A stretch of 64,000 nt of DNA from Ignavibacteria bacterium (GCA_016844745.1 JAERMQ010000013.1:72530-136529); one strand, 5' to 3'. Counted from the first letter of the stretch, positions 33,361 through 39,223 are shown. Notes: generated by a model from the letters alone, not told the origin. A program made the numbers and translations.

Positions 33361-33425
33361 AGGACAGACAGGGATGTCTGTCCTACCATATTAAAAAAAG
33401 TAGAATAGACATCCTTGTCTGTTCA
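33361..33425. repeat. Two CAGAC-core palindromes (aggacagacagggatgtctgtcct; gaatagacatccttgtctgttc), probable terminator hairpins
   Basis: Located at the 3' end of the DUF4337 gene and followed by A/T-rich sequence. The core resembles the RAYT-associated REP (acagacg...cgtctgt). Confidence 0.55.
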
Positions 33426-33974
33426 TCAAAAAAAGATAAAAAAGCCGTTAAAGAAATATAAAATACCGAATGCACCTAATGCCAGGCTTATATACCAAAC
33501 GAATTTCTTTTTCGTTAATGCTGAAATTGATGATAGTAAAATGGAAACCTGAAGGTATATAACGGCTATTCCAAATACTTCCGAGTGAATTTTAGCATCT
33601 TCGGAAATCTGCTCGAAAGCCCGTGCATCTTTTTTAATTTGTTCTTTTTCTTCATCGTATTTTTTTATTTTCTTCGAGTAGGCTTCTATTTTCTTTTCAT
33701 AATCTGTGATTTGTACAGTATTTTTAGAAGTATGTTGGATATCCTGAAGCTCCATTTCGAGCTTATCTTTTTGCATTTCGAAGATATACCCTTTGACACT
33801 TTTGGATTGATAGAAAGCCCATTGGTCTGAGGCTTTTGTTTGGTTCATTAGAGCCCGTGTAGAATATCCTCCTCCTTTGAAAGTAGAGAGAGTAGCGCAT
33901 ACGGCAATCAGGACGGTTGTGATTGCCAAAAATGTAGTCCAGGTTTCTTTTTTTTCGGTTGTTGGTTCGGTCAT
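33426..33974 (-). CDS. DUF4337-family membrane protein (N- and C-terminal TM helices flanking a coiled coil)
   Basis: ASDQWAFYQSK motif and overall architecture typical of DUF4337. Confidence 0.5.
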   Translation of the reverse strand: MTEPTTEKKETWTTFLAITTVLIAVCATLSTFKGGGYSTRALMNQTKASDQWAFYQSKSVKGYIFEMQKDKLEMELQDIQHTSKNTVQITDYEKKIEAYSKKIKKYDEEKEQIKKDARAFEQISEDAKIHSEVFGIAVIYLQVSILLSSISALTKKKFVWYISLALGAFGILYFFNGFFIFF

Positions 33975-33983
33975 TTGTGATTC

Positions 33984-34709
33984 CTATGTTTTGATTTGAG
34001 GGGGTATCCATTTAATAAAATCTTCTCGTTTTGGTGGGTTTTTCATCCATGAAGTATCAGGTATTGGATAAGAGAAGCATTCATTAACAGTTTTTATGTC
34101 TTCCATAATCACAAATTGAATCTTACCGTTTTTACTTGTCCATTTAATTCTTTTGGTTTCTATGATTTTTTTAATTAATAATAATGGCTGCCTAACATCT
34201 TCTTTTAAATATTCCAAAACAGCATCATATTCCCCTTTTGCCCAAAATGATGGTGCTTTAGCGCCATCCATATTATAAATAACAGTGCCGTTTTTTAAAG
34301 TAACTTCCTTTTTCTTCCCTTTTAGCTTACTGCCTTCTAAAGCTGTCTGTAAGCTAAGATAATAACCCACTTGAAATGTGACCCAAAGCATCATATCAAA
34401 ATGATTTAAAGCAAGTTGTCCACAAATATCATAGAGTCCTGATTCTTGGGCAAGAACATGAAAATCAAACGATGTTCCGTTCCATGTCACTATTTTATAT
34501 CCTCCATTGTGAAATTCTAGGAGCATATTAACTAAATCAACGGTTTCATCTTTTGATAATTGGGGAATCCCTTTCCAGATTTTTATTTCATCATTATCAC
34601 TAAAAGCAAGAGCAGCACAAGTGATTCCAAGAGGGGAATACTTTTCCCAAGAGCCGAAATTATTTGGAAATTCTTTTGCAATTTCCAAATCAAAGCAAGC
34701 AAATTTCAT
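33984..34709 (-). CDS. DEDDy-type 3'-5' exonuclease (PolB-exonuclease-like / DnaQ superfamily)
   Basis: Exo I (MKFACFDLE), Exo II (WNGTSFDFHVL) and Exo III (YLKEDV, Y-x3-D) motifs in the correct order and spacing. Confidence 0.55.
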   Translation of the reverse strand: MKFACFDLEIAKEFPNNFGSWEKYSPLGITCAALAFSDNDEIKIWKGIPQLSKDETVDLVNMLLEFHNGGYKIVTWNGTSFDFHVLAQESGLYDICGQLALNHFDMMLWVTFQVGYYLSLQTALEGSKLKGKKKEVTLKNGTVIYNMDGAKAPSFWAKGEYDAVLEYLKEDVRQPLLLIKKIIETKRIKWTSKNGKIQFVIMEDIKTVNECFSYPIPDTSWMKNPPKREDFIKWIPPQIKT

Positions 34710-34933
34710 AAATCACCTATAATAGACATTTTTTTTTTACTATTGATACTGAATTATAAAGGCAATTGAAAAACTAAGAAATAACCGTTAAAATGATTTT
34801 GACTTTGAACATTTCAAAATCCCTTTGTTCTTTTTTCGAAAAGACAGCATTAAACTTATCAAGAATATTTTCTTCATCATCACCTTTGTATGGACTAACG
34901 ATTTGAAAAAATGATAGATTGAATACATATTTT

Positions 34934-35812
34934 TTATACTTCGAATAAACTAACTTCTTGTTCTTTTTTATAGCTTTTTATAATAGCCTGGTTATCAATA
35001 TCCCATATCCTTTTCAAATTATCAGTGTGAATGTAATCGTTATAGTACTTTTCGATAATATCGGATTTACGTATAGTATTAAGTCTATCGTGAATTGTCA
35101 TTACATTTTCCGGGTCTATTTCAATACCGATATAATTTCTTTGTAATTGTTTTGCAACTACCAAAGTTGTTCCGGTTCCTGCAAATGGGTCAAGGATTGT
35201 TTCATAAGGATTTGAGGAAGATAATATCACTCTTAATAATAATGATATCGGAGATTGTTGTTTATGAAATCTATCTCCATTTTCAGTACGAATGGCTTCA
35301 TCCCCAGCGTAATAACCGGATGTCAACTCGCGTATATCATCCCAAACATCAGTTACGAAAACACCGTTTTCATAAGCGTTTTTATAATTAGGTGGCAAGG
35401 GCGGAGAGATTCTTAATTTATTAAATATCCTTGCCTTTTCTCCTTTACAAGCAAAAGCAATTATTTGATAATGTTTGCCAAATTTATTTGAATTGGGGAC
35501 TGCAGAGGTTTTTTTCTTCCAAATAATCAAATTTTGCAATGACCATCCGGTTGTTCTCAAACAATTCAGTACATTCTCAGTATTTTTATCCCTTTGCATA
35601 AAATAAATCGCACCTCCGCTTGAAGTAATATTAAATATTTTAGAACAGACTTCCTTCATCATACTCCAATACTCTAAATCAGAAAGGTTATCATTATGAA
35701 ATCTATAATCCTTGTTTTGATTGAAGGGAGGGTCAAGAAATGTTAAATCAATTTTATCTTCGATTGAAGGTAAAATTTCCAAACAATTGCCATTATATAT
35801 TTTATTTTCCAA
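34934..35812 (-). CDS. DNA methyltransferase, beta-class amino-MTase (N6-adenine or N4-cytosine). No adjacent restriction endonuclease recognised.
   Basis: Motif IV DPPF (IDLTFLDPPFNQ) precedes motif I (ILDPFAGTGTT), the circularly permuted order defining beta-class MTases. Confidence 0.7.
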   Translation of the reverse strand: MENKIYNGNCLEILPSIEDKIDLTFLDPPFNQNKDYRFHNDNLSDLEYWSMMKEVCSKIFNITSSGGAIYFMQRDKNTENVLNCLRTTGWSLQNLIIWKKKTSAVPNSNKFGKHYQIIAFACKGEKARIFNKLRISPPLPPNYKNAYENGVFVTDVWDDIRELTSGYYAGDEAIRTENGDRFHKQQSPISLLLRVILSSSNPYETILDPFAGTGTTLVVAKQLQRNYIGIEIDPENVMTIHDRLNTIRKSDIIEKYYNDYIHTDNLKRIWDIDNQAIIKSYKKEQEVSLFEV

Positions 35813-35864
35813 ATATATCTCTATATAAAAATTATAACCAATATCATATAAATAATTTTATTCA

Positions 35865-36611
35865 TCATTTTAACATTGAAATTGATTTTGGTAATAAATC
35901 TAACTGATTATAATCAAATAATGTTTGATTTATATAAATACTTTGATTTTGAAGCATCAAAAAATTATAAATTTTCGATAATGTTGAGTCTCCAATACCA
36001 CTTACCTTCCTTAATTCAATTATTGTAGAAATATCATTGATATCTAAAGCTTTTTGAATTTTTGAAATAACTCTCGTATCTAAATCAATTTCTTTTTTAA
36101 TATCATTGATTCTTTTTCTCAGCAAATATGCTTTGAAAGTTTCGATTAAATCATCCTTGGAAAACTTATCATATTCATAAATTTCGACGGGTATTTCGCA
36201 TTTGCTTAAATATTCGAACATGATTTCTTTAACAGTTTTAGGGTCTAATCCTCCATTCTGCGCACCTAAAAGAGGAAAAGCAATTGATTCTATTTTTTGC
36301 TCATTATAAGTATCTAAAAATTTTTGAAGACCTTTCGTTAAAAATTCTATTTTGGAAGGAAATCTCCAATGTTTTTTCGTTGGAAAATTTAAAATCCATT
36401 TTTTGTCAGTTTTATAAATCCATAATTTTCCTATTTCAATTTGTTTTGCATCACAAAATTTTACATACTTTTCGTACATATCAGGATATCTATACCTGTA
36501 TTCTAAAGCAATACCGGCTCCCATTTCACCATAACAGTTAACGGTATTAACTAAAGTCTGGTAACCCGATGTGAATAGATTCCCTTTAATGATTTTTATA
36601 TTATTTTTCAT
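35865..36611 (-). CDS. darG: Macro-domain protein, DarG-like antitoxin (ADP-ribosyl hydrolase) with C-terminal HhH-like extension
   Basis: The N-terminal IIKGNLFTSGYQTLVNTVNCYGEMGAGIALEYRYRYP matches the macro-domain ADP-ribose-binding loop (G-D/N-I...VNAAN...GGGV). Sits immediately downstream of darT in the canonical toxin-then-antitoxin order. The C-terminus contains VSGIGDSTLSKI (HhH-like). Confidence 0.6.
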   Translation of the reverse strand: MKNNIKIIKGNLFTSGYQTLVNTVNCYGEMGAGIALEYRYRYPDMYEKYVKFCDAKQIEIGKLWIYKTDKKWILNFPTKKHWRFPSKIEFLTKGLQKFLDTYNEQKIESIAFPLLGAQNGGLDPKTVKEIMFEYLSKCEIPVEIYEYDKFSKDDLIETFKAYLLRKRINDIKKEIDLDTRVISKIQKALDINDISTIIELRKVSGIGDSTLSKIYNFLMLQNQSIYINQTLFDYNQLDLLPKSISMLK

Positions 36612-36613
36612 AT

Positions 36614-37351
36614 TTAATTAAGAGTATTGAAAAAATATTTTTTATTAGTATCAATTACAACCTCAATTTTAGACGAAAAATTCATGAATTCATTTTTCAA
36701 AAATATTTCGGATATAAAATATTTTGAACTTTCATTTGGACAAATAATTTGTGTAATATATTTTATATCAATAGATGGAAATACTAAAACTTCAGCACAC
36801 CTTTTCCTTCTCGTTTCAGCTTGAATGATTTTCACTTCTTCAGATCCTAAATAAGGTTCGTTAACAGCCCAAGTTTTCTGTTTTAATATTAACTCCAAGT
36901 CAAGAAAAAATAAATTATCAATTTCTTTATAAAACCTAGTTTTATCAGCACCAGCATTACCATCCGTAAAATAAACATTAGGTTGATAAATAACTTCTGG
37001 ATTTACAAACAGGACAACTAAATCATCTTGAATATCTTTTCTTTTAAATAACATAGGATTTTTTACCTGAAAATATAAGGAAGCGCAATCATGGAGTTTG
37101 ATATTTGTATCTTTTATATATTTAAATTCTCTTCTATCCTGAATTTCTTTCATAGAAATATCTTGCTTTATTAGCCCTCGTTTGTATGCTTCATTATGTG
37201 ATAGAATGCCATATCTGAGTATATTTTCTACATTATTTTTATGAAGCAAATGTTGAAAATTATGAATATAATAGTTCTTTTTATTAAATCGAATTTTAAT
37301 ACAATTTTGATTTTGATCCGAATCATTTTTATAAAAGAAAATATCATCCAT
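36614..37351 (-). CDS. darT: DarT (DUF4433) ssDNA thymidine ADP-ribosyltransferase toxin
   Basis: N-terminal YYIHNFQHLLHKNNVENILRYGILSHN (cf. DarT YHITHIDNL..IL..G.L.HN), central FTDGNAG (cf. FTDRHAA) and C-terminal RRKRCAEVLVFP (cf. RRRMAEVLVWP with the catalytic Glu) match the DarT family. Confidence 0.7.
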   Translation of the reverse strand: MDDIFFYKNDSDQNQNCIKIRFNKKNYYIHNFQHLLHKNNVENILRYGILSHNEAYKRGLIKQDISMKEIQDRREFKYIKDTNIKLHDCASLYFQVKNPMLFKRKDIQDDLVVLFVNPEVIYQPNVYFTDGNAGADKTRFYKEIDNLFFLDLELILKQKTWAVNEPYLGSEEVKIIQAETRRKRCAEVLVFPSIDIKYITQIICPNESSKYFISEIFLKNEFMNFSSKIEVVIDTNKKYFFNTLN

Positions 37352-37354
37352 TTC

Positions 37355-39223
37355 CTATTTCCCACCCTTCTCCAAAAAGCTTTTGAATTTTTCGATATCG
37401 GCATTGTAAACCTCCGTTGCAATGGTTTTATCATTATTTGAAATGATGGCATATAAAGGTAGCTCTGTTGTTCCGAAGCGGTCTAACTGAAATGAGCGAT
37501 TGCCTAAGTATGGTTGTTCCTTGACATCGGTAATCAATTTCACTTTAACCATTTTATTCATCATCGCTTTGATTTCAGGCTTAACAAAAACCGTTCGCTC
37601 CATTTTCTTGCAATTAGTACAATGTACACCTGTAAAATCAACAAAAATCGATTTTCCCTCGGCTTTTGCCTTTTTAAGAGCTTCCATATAATCCGTTAAC
37701 CAGACATCATCAGGACTTTGAGCTGAAGCTGCTGCCAATGCTTCGGATTGTGGAATAAATGTTTCTAATTCTCCAAGATTTCTTCCGAATAAACCCGATA
37801 GGAAGAAGAATGTCATAGCCGCGAAAATTATCGCAAAGAATAAGCGCATTATTCCAATCCGGTCGATCGGGGAGTCGTGCATTAATTTGAATATGCCTAA
37901 TACATATAGTACCATGAGAAATCCAATACCAGACCATATCGACAGGAATAATTCACGGGAAATACCACTTCCCCATGTGATTAATGCATCATTGAAGAAT
38001 TTGAGCGAAACTGCAACGATTATAAATCCCATGACTCCTTTTATATTATTCATCCAGCCGCCGGCTCTGGGCATTTTATTTAATGCTGCGGGGAAGAGCG
38101 CAAGGAGGAAAAAAGGGAAAGCTAAAACCGATGAAAAAGCTAACATACTAATGGTCGGAGCGAACCAATCACCACTTGCAGCAGCACCTAATGCAGCAGC
38201 TACATGAGGTCCGACACAGGAAAAAGATGCCATCGAAAATGTCAATGCCATAAGAATAACGCTGAATATCCCCTGTCCTTCCTGGGACTTCGCATTTAAT
38301 TTATTCATTATTCCGGTTGGAAGCTGAATTTCAAACATCCCGAATAGGTTCAAACCGAAAAAGATGCAGATTGCTCCAATGAAAAAGTAAACATAAGGAT
38401 TGGTTGCAAAGTCCTGTACACCTGTCTTACCGAAGAGTAAAGAAAATACAACACCTATAAAGGTAAAAGTAACGATAATACCGATGGCATAAACCAAAGC
38501 ATCACGCAAACCTTTACCTTTGGATTTCTCTGCACGATTAGTGAAAAATGAAATTGTAATCGGTACCATTGGATACACGCAAGGCATGAGTAAAGCCAAA
38601 GCGCCCATAGTTAGCGATATCCATATATAATCGAATATACTTTCTTTTTCTTCGATGGGTTTTTCTTCCTTTTTCATGGATTCTACTTGCTGAGGTGTTG
38701 CCTCCGAGATTGATGCAGTTTCAGATGGTTGATAAACTTCGGCTGAAATAGCGGTTTTGAAATCTTCAGGCGGCAGGCAGGTAGTGCCTGTACACAATTG
38801 AAGATATGTAACGACAAATACACAATCCCTAACAAAATTTATATTTTTTAAAGCTTTGGAGGGTATCTCAAAAACCTGGTTTCCCTCATAGAATTTAACA
38901 TCCATTTCGAAACCTTCATCGCGTTCTTTTTTAGGCTTTGGGGCTCTTATATTGCCGTTTAAGGAAACCATTTCCTTAGGCTCCAAAGAAATTTCGGTTT
39001 GTAATGGACCTATTCCTTCTTTATTCAATTGCTCATCGAGTGAGTATGTATGATAATCCTTGTCAAGCATCATTGAAAGTTTAATTGAAAACGCTTCACC
39101 TTCTTTCACCTCTGATTTCGAAGGCTGAGCCTTGAATTTGACAAATTTTTGCTGACCAAAAGAATTACCGCTAAATATAAAAAACAATGCTGATATAATG
39201 CTCAAAACAAATAGCTTTCTCAT
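37355..39223 (-). CDS. dsbD: Thiol:disulfide interchange protein DsbD (N-terminal periplasmic domain + cytochrome-c-biogenesis transmembrane core + C-terminal thioredoxin domain)
   Basis: Multi-pass TM core, C-terminal thioredoxin CxxC (VHCTNCKKME), N-terminal signal peptide. 622 aa. Confidence 0.75.
   Translation of the reverse strand: MRKLFVLSIISALFFIFSGNSFGQQKFVKFKAQPSKSEVKEGEAFSIKLSMMLDKDYHTYSLDEQLNKEGIGPLQTEISLEPKEMVSLNGNIRAPKPKKERDEGFEMDVKFYEGNQVFEIPSKALKNINFVRDCVFVVTYLQLCTGTTCLPPEDFKTAISAEVYQPSETASISEATPQQVESMKKEEKPIEEKESIFDYIWISLTMGALALLMPCVYPMVPITISFFTNRAEKSKGKGLRDALVYAIGIIVTFTFIGVVFSLLFGKTGVQDFATNPYVYFFIGAICIFFGLNLFGMFEIQLPTGIMNKLNAKSQEGQGIFSVILMALTFSMASFSCVGPHVAAALGAAASGDWFAPTISMLAFSSVLAFPFFLLALFPAALNKMPRAGGWMNNIKGVMGFIIVAVSLKFFNDALITWGSGISRELFLSIWSGIGFLMVLYVLGIFKLMHDSPIDRIGIMRLFFAIIFAAMTFFFLSGLFGRNLGELETFIPQSEALAAASAQSPDDVWLTDYMEALKKAKAEGKSIFVDFTGVHCTNCKKMERTVFVKPEIKAMMNKMVKVKLITDVKEQPYLGNRSFQLDRFGTTELPLYAIISNNDKTIATEVYNADIEKFKSFLEKGGK

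Follow-up and report, generated by a model that had tools for sequence, protein, structure and literature searches.

Analysis of a 64,000-nucleotide stretch of DNA from an Ignavibacteria bacterium (GCA_016844745.1 JAERMQ010000013.1:72530-136529; hereafter the window) revealed, downstream of dsbD, a crowded block of minus-strand genes that in all likelihood represents two independent defence-type modules, a DarTG2 toxin-antitoxin pair and a decayed Type II restriction-modification (R-M) system, lying beside two unrelated host genes that encode a DEDDy 3'-5' exonuclease and a DUF4337 membrane protein. According to this explanation, the segment 34754-37351 (about 2.6 kb) would be foreign DNA lying between dsbD and the host exonuclease/DUF4337 pair; the whole block may be read through from dsbD, yet would not constitute a single system. 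The features concerned are as follows.

37355-39223, minus strand: dsbD, upstream flank and host gene, with DsbD_TM, DsbD_N and Thioredoxin_7 domains.
36614-37351, minus strand: darT, predicted DarT2-like toxin of 245 aa, an ADP-ribosyltransferase acting on single-stranded DNA (ssDNA) (Pfam PF14487, 1.8e-37; PADLOC DarT, 2.6e-31).
35865-36611, minus strand: short form of darG, predicted macrodomain ADP-ribosylglycohydrolase antitoxin of 248 aa (Macro, 1.9e-17; PADLOC DarG, 6e-55).
35868-36164, minus strand: C-terminal tail of DarG, residues 150-248, a ComEA-like helix-hairpin-helix (HhH) region recognised by matches of the tail profile.
34934-35812, minus strand: intact beta-class N6/N4 DNA methyltransferase (methylase) of 292 aa (PF01555 N6_N4_Mtase, 7.9e-42; PADLOC MTase_II, 1.6e-39).
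34754-34928, minus strand: 175-bp pseudogene remnant of the methylase's partner, a putative PD-ExK Type II endonuclease, found by tblastn.
33984-34709, minus strand: stand-alone DEDDy 3'-5' exonuclease of 241 aa (DNA_pol_B_exo2, 1.8e-6; RNase_H_2, 7e-6).
33426-33974, minus strand: DUF4337 membrane protein of 182 aa (PF14235, 5e-53).
33366-33383, minus strand: terminator-like hairpin after the DUF4337 gene, from a consensus scan in which the number of hits was not above the shuffled expectation.

A six-frame list of open reading frames (ORFs) contained the five consecutive genes downstream of dsbD at exactly these coordinates, all on the minus strand, and the gaps in the order dsbD, darT, darG, methylase, exonuclease and DUF4337 gene were 3, 2, 52, 224 and 9 nt, so that the darT ATG lies 3 nt past the end of dsbD. 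The order dsbD-darT-darG-methylase was repeated in an assembly from an independent read set, in which the DarTG copy was identical. An earlier note, made from the sequence alone, had described four to five tightly packed minus-strand genes, with darT directly after dsbD, and had named their products as DarT, a short macrodomain protein in the DarG position with an HhH-like tail instead of the usual C-terminal domain, an amino-methyltransferase with DPPF preceding FxGxG, a DEDDy exonuclease and a DUF4337 protein. All of these assignments were borne out, and searches with profile hidden Markov models (HMMs) for DUF4433, Macro, N6_N4_Mtase and DNA_pol_B_exo2 agreed with every domain call.

The product of darT scored 129.4 bits against PF14487, for which the Pfam cutoff is 22.5, and covered positions 2-195 of the 201-position profile. 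Alignment with 12 homologues showed R74, H87, Y93, N98-P99-M100, D130, N132 and E187-V-L-V to be invariant. In Thermus DarT, the catalytic residues are R51, H65, Y71, M78, H119 and E160 (PMC9967889), and these correspond to R74, H87, Y93, M100, N132 and E187, respectively, in the window protein. At the position of E187, the E160A-type mutant that was crystallised (7OMV) has Ala, and the Asn that occupies the H119 position is also present in the Thermosipho africanus and M. tuberculosis enzymes. When a profile built from the DarT alignment was compared with the PDB, the best match was the T. africanus DarT-macro fusion 7OMU (138 bits), followed by Thermus DarT 7OMV (108 bits), M. tuberculosis DarT 7YK3 (73 bits) and E. 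coli DarT1 8BAQ (55 bits).

The pair was assigned to the DarTG2 class because the partner is a macrodomain protein and the scores to DarT2 were above that to DarT1; members of this class carry out reversible ADP-ribosylation of thymidine in ssDNA (PMC11543638). With the known DarTG2 systems (Thermus, M. tuberculosis and enteropathogenic E. coli, together with the T. africanus fusion) it shares the R, H, Y, M and E residues of DarT, a co-oriented macrodomain gene directly downstream that carries the catalytic Lys of DarG/TARG1, and a position adjoining R-M genes. DarTG1, in which DarT1 ADP-ribosylates guanosine and is paired with a NADAR antitoxin, belongs to the same DarT superfamily and follows the same toxin-antitoxin logic, but the partner in the window is a macrodomain protein with no NADAR domain, and the toxin scored 55 bits to DarT1 (E. 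coli C7) versus 108-138 bits to the DarT2-type proteins. The closest DarT among 5.8 billion proteins was 46% identical, and no DarT relatives were found in a phage collection. As both proteins fell below the NCBIfam equivalog cutoffs (toxin_DarT, 96.1 bits versus 150; antitoxin_DarG, 177 bits versus 250), the window DarTG represents a divergent subfamily and not an equivalog. Judged from the sequences, this is a divergent but real DarTG2-type toxin-antitoxin pair, whose catalytic residues are kept and whose enzymes are thus predicted to be active. By analogy with the published mechanism, and given the conserved residues, DarT would use NAD+ to ADP-ribosylate thymidine in ssDNA and thereby block replication, and the co-translated DarG would remove the adduct through its TARG1-like macrodomain, with K79 as the catalytic residue.

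It was also noticed that two segments of the window DarT were not present in the 12 aligned homologues: 1) an N-terminal extension of ~17 residues (residues 1-17), which arises because the darT start lies 3 nt past the dsbD stop, and 2) a 9-residue insertion at ~166-176 (the LGSEEVKI region).

The darG gene starts 2 nt past the darT stop in the same orientation. Its 248-aa product matched the Thermus DarG macrodomain 5m31 (1.8e-34) and retains the DarG motif PTKKHW, in which K79 and W82 correspond to K80 and W83 of the Taq protein (residue roles from PMC9967889). The similarity to known DarG is confined to this part of the protein, since the PADLOC and NCBIfam DarG profiles were matched over their N-terminal ~155 positions only (PADLOC, positions 2-152 of 329). 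The remaining tail was conserved in 16 aligned DarG-like proteins, with G205, G207 and T210 invariant, and its profile matched the HhH region of Hel308 (7.4e-6), the ComEA-related structure 2duy (1e-4) and ComEA 8dss (2.4e-4). The tail profile did not match the C-terminal domain of M. tuberculosis DarG (7YK3_B), to which, as a control, a profile of the canonical DarG C-terminal region was matched at 1.6e-26. Direct comparison of the tail with the canonical C-terminal domain by hhalign gave a probability of 0.4%, where controls with unrelated alignments gave 0.1%. A value of 96.5%, according to which the tail would have been the canonical domain, was an artefact of a "canonical" set that held four tail-bearing long DarGs of the close clade. 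Searching with the tail alone against 1.84 billion representatives returned 15 weak matches, mostly multi-stretch.

These comparisons indicate an antitoxin that is devoid of the known DarT-binding C-terminal domain and carries a predicted ComEA-like HhH tail in its place. In this respect the window pair differs from the known DarTG2 systems, in that the antitoxin has 248 aa versus about 350 aa and the HhH tail replaces a domain of the type seen in 7YK3 chain B; a C-terminal DarT-binding domain is typical of the class, yet the T. africanus fusion is also without it. No paper describing a macro-HhH architecture for DarG was found in a literature search for DarG together with helix-hairpin-helix.

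To relatives of the window DarT in metagenome contigs, a scan was applied with a 7-sequence subset of the DarT alignment, the 13-sequence alignment being too diverse for use as a query; it yielded 80 DarT loci, of which 69 had an adjoining DarG-like gene. The lengths of the 59 complete DarG genes were bimodal, being either 221-251 aa or about 347-376 aa, and followed the DarT clade. Where DarT scored at least 77 bits to that of the window, DarG was short in 15 of 22 loci and short with an added Xre-type helix-turn-helix (HTH) in 2 more, whereas the canonical long DarG (~350 aa) was found in 34 of the 37 loci with a distant DarT. The short length and the conserved tail are shared by 15 independent loci and are therefore a trait of the family rather than the result of truncation. 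DarG of this form lacks the ~190-aa canonical DarT-sequestering domain, and its ~95-aa ComEA-type HhH tail most likely serves to hold the hydrolase on DNA, or else to contact this clade of DarT.

One of the relatives, on a contig shared by two of the loci (L001:8001-10264, shared with L101; Ga0272446_1003557), is a three-gene DarTG variant. Its second gene, after that for DarT, is a 217-aa ORF that weakly resembles HD/Cas3-HD proteins (PADLOC Cas3, 1.3e-5; Pfam HD, 0.003), and the third encodes a DarG of 316 aa in which the macrodomain and the HhH tail are followed by an Xre-type HTH at the C-terminus (HTH_26, 1.3e-6). This variant is adjoined by an MmeI-like Type IIG R-M gene.

The methylase downstream of darG is intact, with DPPF (motif IV) at residues 27-30 ahead of FAGTG (motif I) at about 209-213, and its full-length homologues, 67-77% identical, came from both Bacteria and Archaea. 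They occurred in five distinct genomic contexts, represented by 1) groundwater contigs L094-L097, 2) L098, 3) a Bacteroidota metagenome-assembled genome (L099/L100), 4) an Altiarchaeales archaeon (L181), and 5) an Anaerolineales member (L182). In 4 of these 5 contexts the methylase was directly followed by a conserved ORF of 276-280 aa, intact copies of which are located at L094:5915-6745, L098:5914-6756, L099:5882-6712 and L181:1683-2510. The distance from the methylase stop to the start of this partner was 2-4 nt in L094, L098 and L099 and about 210 nt in L181. The partner ORFs of the Bacteria and the Altiarchaeales archaeon were 63-75% identical among themselves, and inspection revealed an invariant PD44...E63-L-K65 motif. 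Based on the gene order, the co-transfer with the methylase and the PD..ExK-like motif, the partner is a putative Type II restriction endonuclease.

With a Type II R-M system of the kind that combines a beta-class methylase and a PD-(D/E)XK nuclease, the locus has in common the intact beta-class methylase, the partner ORF directly downstream in homologous loci, and a pair that is 63-77% identical between Bacteria and an archaeon. Such sharing between domains is typical of mobile R-M systems, and loss of the restriction gene with retention of the methylase is a classic route of their decay. It differs from a standard system of this type in that the partner family is unannotated and that no intact restriction gene is present in the window, where 175 bp are left.

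These 175 bp were located by tblastn with the partners of L094, L098 and L099 as queries, which detected three ordered partner fragments (E about 1e-6) within the 224-nt gap between the methylase and the exonuclease gene: aa 1-15 at 34928-34884 (80% identity), aa 232-262 at 34890-34798, and aa 262-276 at 34801-34757. The remnant begins with an ATG 5 nt past the methylase stop and reads MYSIYHFFKSLVHTK, continues out of frame with GDDEENILDKFNAVFSKKEQRDFEMFKVK and, after a second frameshift, ends with HFNGYFLVFQLPL and a stop. The first 15 and the last ~45 codons are left, and ~216 codons, PD44...E63-L-K65 included, are gone. Because the fragments lie at the expected position and in the expected order, the methylase is regarded as the remaining member of a Type II R-M pair that has decayed. 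The description of the methylase as solitary in the earlier note therefore holds in so far as no intact restriction enzyme gene is present, but not as regards the 224-nt gap, which holds the partner remnant; the methylase looks like an orphan because a pseudogene lies concealed in the "intergenic" gap. It is solitary because its partner was deleted in situ and not through working with DarT. With the partner frameshifted and ~216 internal codons lost, methylation alone could remain as the activity of the R-M module.

The Anaerolineales orthologue (L182:3001-3882), which shares 69% identity, stands alone without any vestige of the partner gene and sits in a sialic-acid-type sugar cluster with CMP-NeuAc synthetase-like and NeuB genes. 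From this solitary orthologue it follows that orphaning of the methylase occurred more than once.

The 52-nt spacer between darG and the methylase gene (35813-35864) is AT-rich and contains a perfect TATAAT ~20 nt upstream of the TTG start of the methylase, which was not listed in the consensus scan for want of an acceptable -35 element. This TATAAT would fit an own promoter of the R-M module.

The relationship between the components was evaluated from their linkage in other loci. Neither this methylase family nor this exonuclease family occurred in any of 85 DarT loci (546 kb, searched by tblastn and family HMMs), the DUF4337 gene was found in none of the 80 metagenome DarT loci, and no DarT or Macro gene was present in the 5 methylase contexts. 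For the exonuclease, 87 loci (L007-L093) were collected by scanning a genome collection with an alignment, a scan with the single protein having given no match; in 0 of the 87 did DarT, DarG, this methylase, DUF4337 or DsbD lie within 8 kb. The combination of DarTG, methylase and exonuclease was unique to the window. In a Pfam census that took in 40 loci and the 107 ORFs lying no more than 1.8 kb from DarTG, the commonest neighbours were parts of Type I and Type IIG R-M systems (Methylase_S, 6; ResIII, 6; N6_Mtase, 4; HsdM_N, 4; HSDR_N, 3; Eco57I, 2), and the location of DarTG beside R-M genes is an already known defence-island pattern.

Base composition also set the modules apart. The G+C content (GC) and the G+C content at third codon positions (GC3) were 0.248 and 0.167 for darT, 0.27 and 0.21 for darG, 0.32 and 0.26 for the methylase gene, and 0.386 and 0.361 for dsbD, while the 27 long ORFs of the window had a GC of 0.373 +/- 0.034 and a GC3 of 0.325 +/- 0.046. 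The low GC3 of darT and darG suggests that they are of foreign origin, and from composition the DarTG and R-M modules are possibly of separate origins. No flanking direct repeats were detected beyond chance-level AT-rich matches, no tRNA was located within 10 kb, no Rfam family was matched, and the block contained no integrase or transposase ORF.

These data bear on an alternative in which DarTG and the R-M module make up a loose defence island, acquired jointly or at a shared hot spot, with DarTG stabilising the locus as an addiction module, the methylase being kept for an epigenetic or anti-restriction role, and no biochemical cooperation between them. Such an origin agrees with the enrichment of R-M genes among the 107 ORFs neighbouring DarTG elsewhere, with published DarTG2 examples embedded in Type I R-M systems, and with a methylase that stays intact here despite the destroyed restriction gene and occurs as a solitary orthologue in L182. 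However, the GC3 of 0.17-0.21 for DarTG as opposed to 0.26 for the methylase suggests separate origins, and a common element is not marked by any mobility gene, tRNA or flanking repeat; we consider this alternative unlikely, although it overlaps with the explanation by two independent modules and does not contradict it.

Far less credible is the proposal of the earlier note of a composite anti-phage system that would comprise DarTG and the methylase together with the DEDDy exonuclease and the DUF4337 protein, and in which ADP-ribosylation would act in cooperation with methylation or with 3'-5' processing. The genes do share one strand, short gaps and the lack of a predicted internal terminator, and crosstalk between methylation and ADP-ribosylation has been proposed as a possibility for Type I R-M (PMC5179494). 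The components were nevertheless unlinked in the 85 DarT loci and the 87 exonuclease loci, leaving the composite module unsupported and largely refuted; the earlier note had itself named the lack of a conserved linkage of DarT to a methylase or exonuclease in other genomes as a finding that would speak against it, and the survey found no such linkage. Moreover, the methylase derives from a separate decayed R-M pair, the exonuclease family stands alone in housekeeping contexts, PADLOC gave no match for the exonuclease or the DUF4337 protein, and the composition of DarTG is unlike that of its neighbours. That DarTG is itself decaying or domesticated, with a truncated DarG and an inactive or attenuated DarT, might be read from a DarG ~100 aa under the canonical length, from the scores of both proteins below the equivalog cutoffs and from the non-conserved N-terminal extension and unique 9-aa insertion of DarT, but is hardly to be believed for two unbroken, tightly coupled ORFs that have an identical copy in an independent assembly and retain all catalytic residues of both enzymes, the short DarG (221-251 aa) with the same tail recurring in 15 independent loci.

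Several observations weigh against the explanation by two inserted modules beside host genes. The GC3 of the exonuclease gene is lowish too (0.25). A relative genome with an empty site was not found, and the island boundaries were drawn from composition and homologue contexts. The 276-aa partner was unmatched in Pfam, NCBIfam, PADLOC, PHROGs, the PDB and a plasmid collection, and single-sequence AlphaFold modelling of DarG was unreliable for residues 168-248, with a predicted local distance difference test (pLDDT) score <50. In addition, the consensus scan predicted no intrinsic terminator between dsbD and the DUF4337 gene, so read-through and co-transcription of the block are possible; co-transcription, though, would be no evidence for a joint function. 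A scan for sigma-70 promoters listed 41 sites versus 36 +/- 7 in shuffled sequence, and the sigma-70 consensus may not be that of the host.

On a more far-reaching reading, the locus may hold an undescribed DarTG2 subtype, with a macro-HhH DarG that is tethered to DNA and acts by repair only, and, as a separate matter, the methylase's partner gene may represent a new family of Type II endonucleases. We put this forward tentatively, as possible but short of what we would expect. In such a subtype, DarT may be neutralised purely via repair of the adduct and not by sequestration through a C-terminal domain that mimics ssDNA, and in some relatives an Xre-type HTH or a gene for a Cas3-like HD domain is present in addition; the endonuclease family would be common to Bacteria and Archaea. 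New here are the macro-HhH subtype of DarG and an unannotated family of putative restriction enzymes. Current models of DarT neutralisation lean on the canonical DarG C-terminal domain, and a short DarG without that domain is accordingly a natural case in which to ask whether DarT can be controlled by nothing more than enzymatic reversal, which might be targeted to DNA. The locus also calls for caution in annotation, as tight packing on the same strand after a housekeeping gene mimicked a five-gene defence operon.

The two genes that close the block, those for the exonuclease and the DUF4337 protein, are considered unrelated host neighbours outside the DarTG and R-M modules; for the exonuclease gene, the host status is inferred from its stand-alone distribution elsewhere. 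The exonuclease family, 50-60% identical across Chloroflexota, Brocadiaceae, Acidobacteriota, Ignavibacteria and others, was represented by a lone gene amid housekeeping genes in all three contexts inspected, and its Ignavibacteria loci were without dsbD and DUF4337. The window protein has the motifs Exo I (D7-x-E9), Exo II (N77..F81-D82) and Exo III (Y167-x3-D171), and D7, E9, D82, Y167 and D171 were invariant in 30 homologues. An AlphaFold2 model built with 30 sequences had a pLDDT of 95, and the closest solved folds detected by Foldseek were those of the T7 Pol and Pol epsilon proofreading domains (probability 1.0), with TREX1 and ExoI also matched; TM-scores to solved structures were 0.3-0.5. 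It therefore resembles the known DEDDy exonucleases (DnaQ-like; DNA_pol_B_exo2 / RNase_H_2) in its Exo I/II/III motifs and proofreading-domain fold, but differs in that its 240 aa form a protein on their own, without a link to defence genes, and is a member of a widespread, distinct and uncharacterised stand-alone DEDDy family. The spacing of 9 nt between the exonuclease and DUF4337 genes is a feature of the window, and as DUF4337 occurred in 0 of the 87 other exonuclease loci, the pairing of the two genes is lineage-specific.

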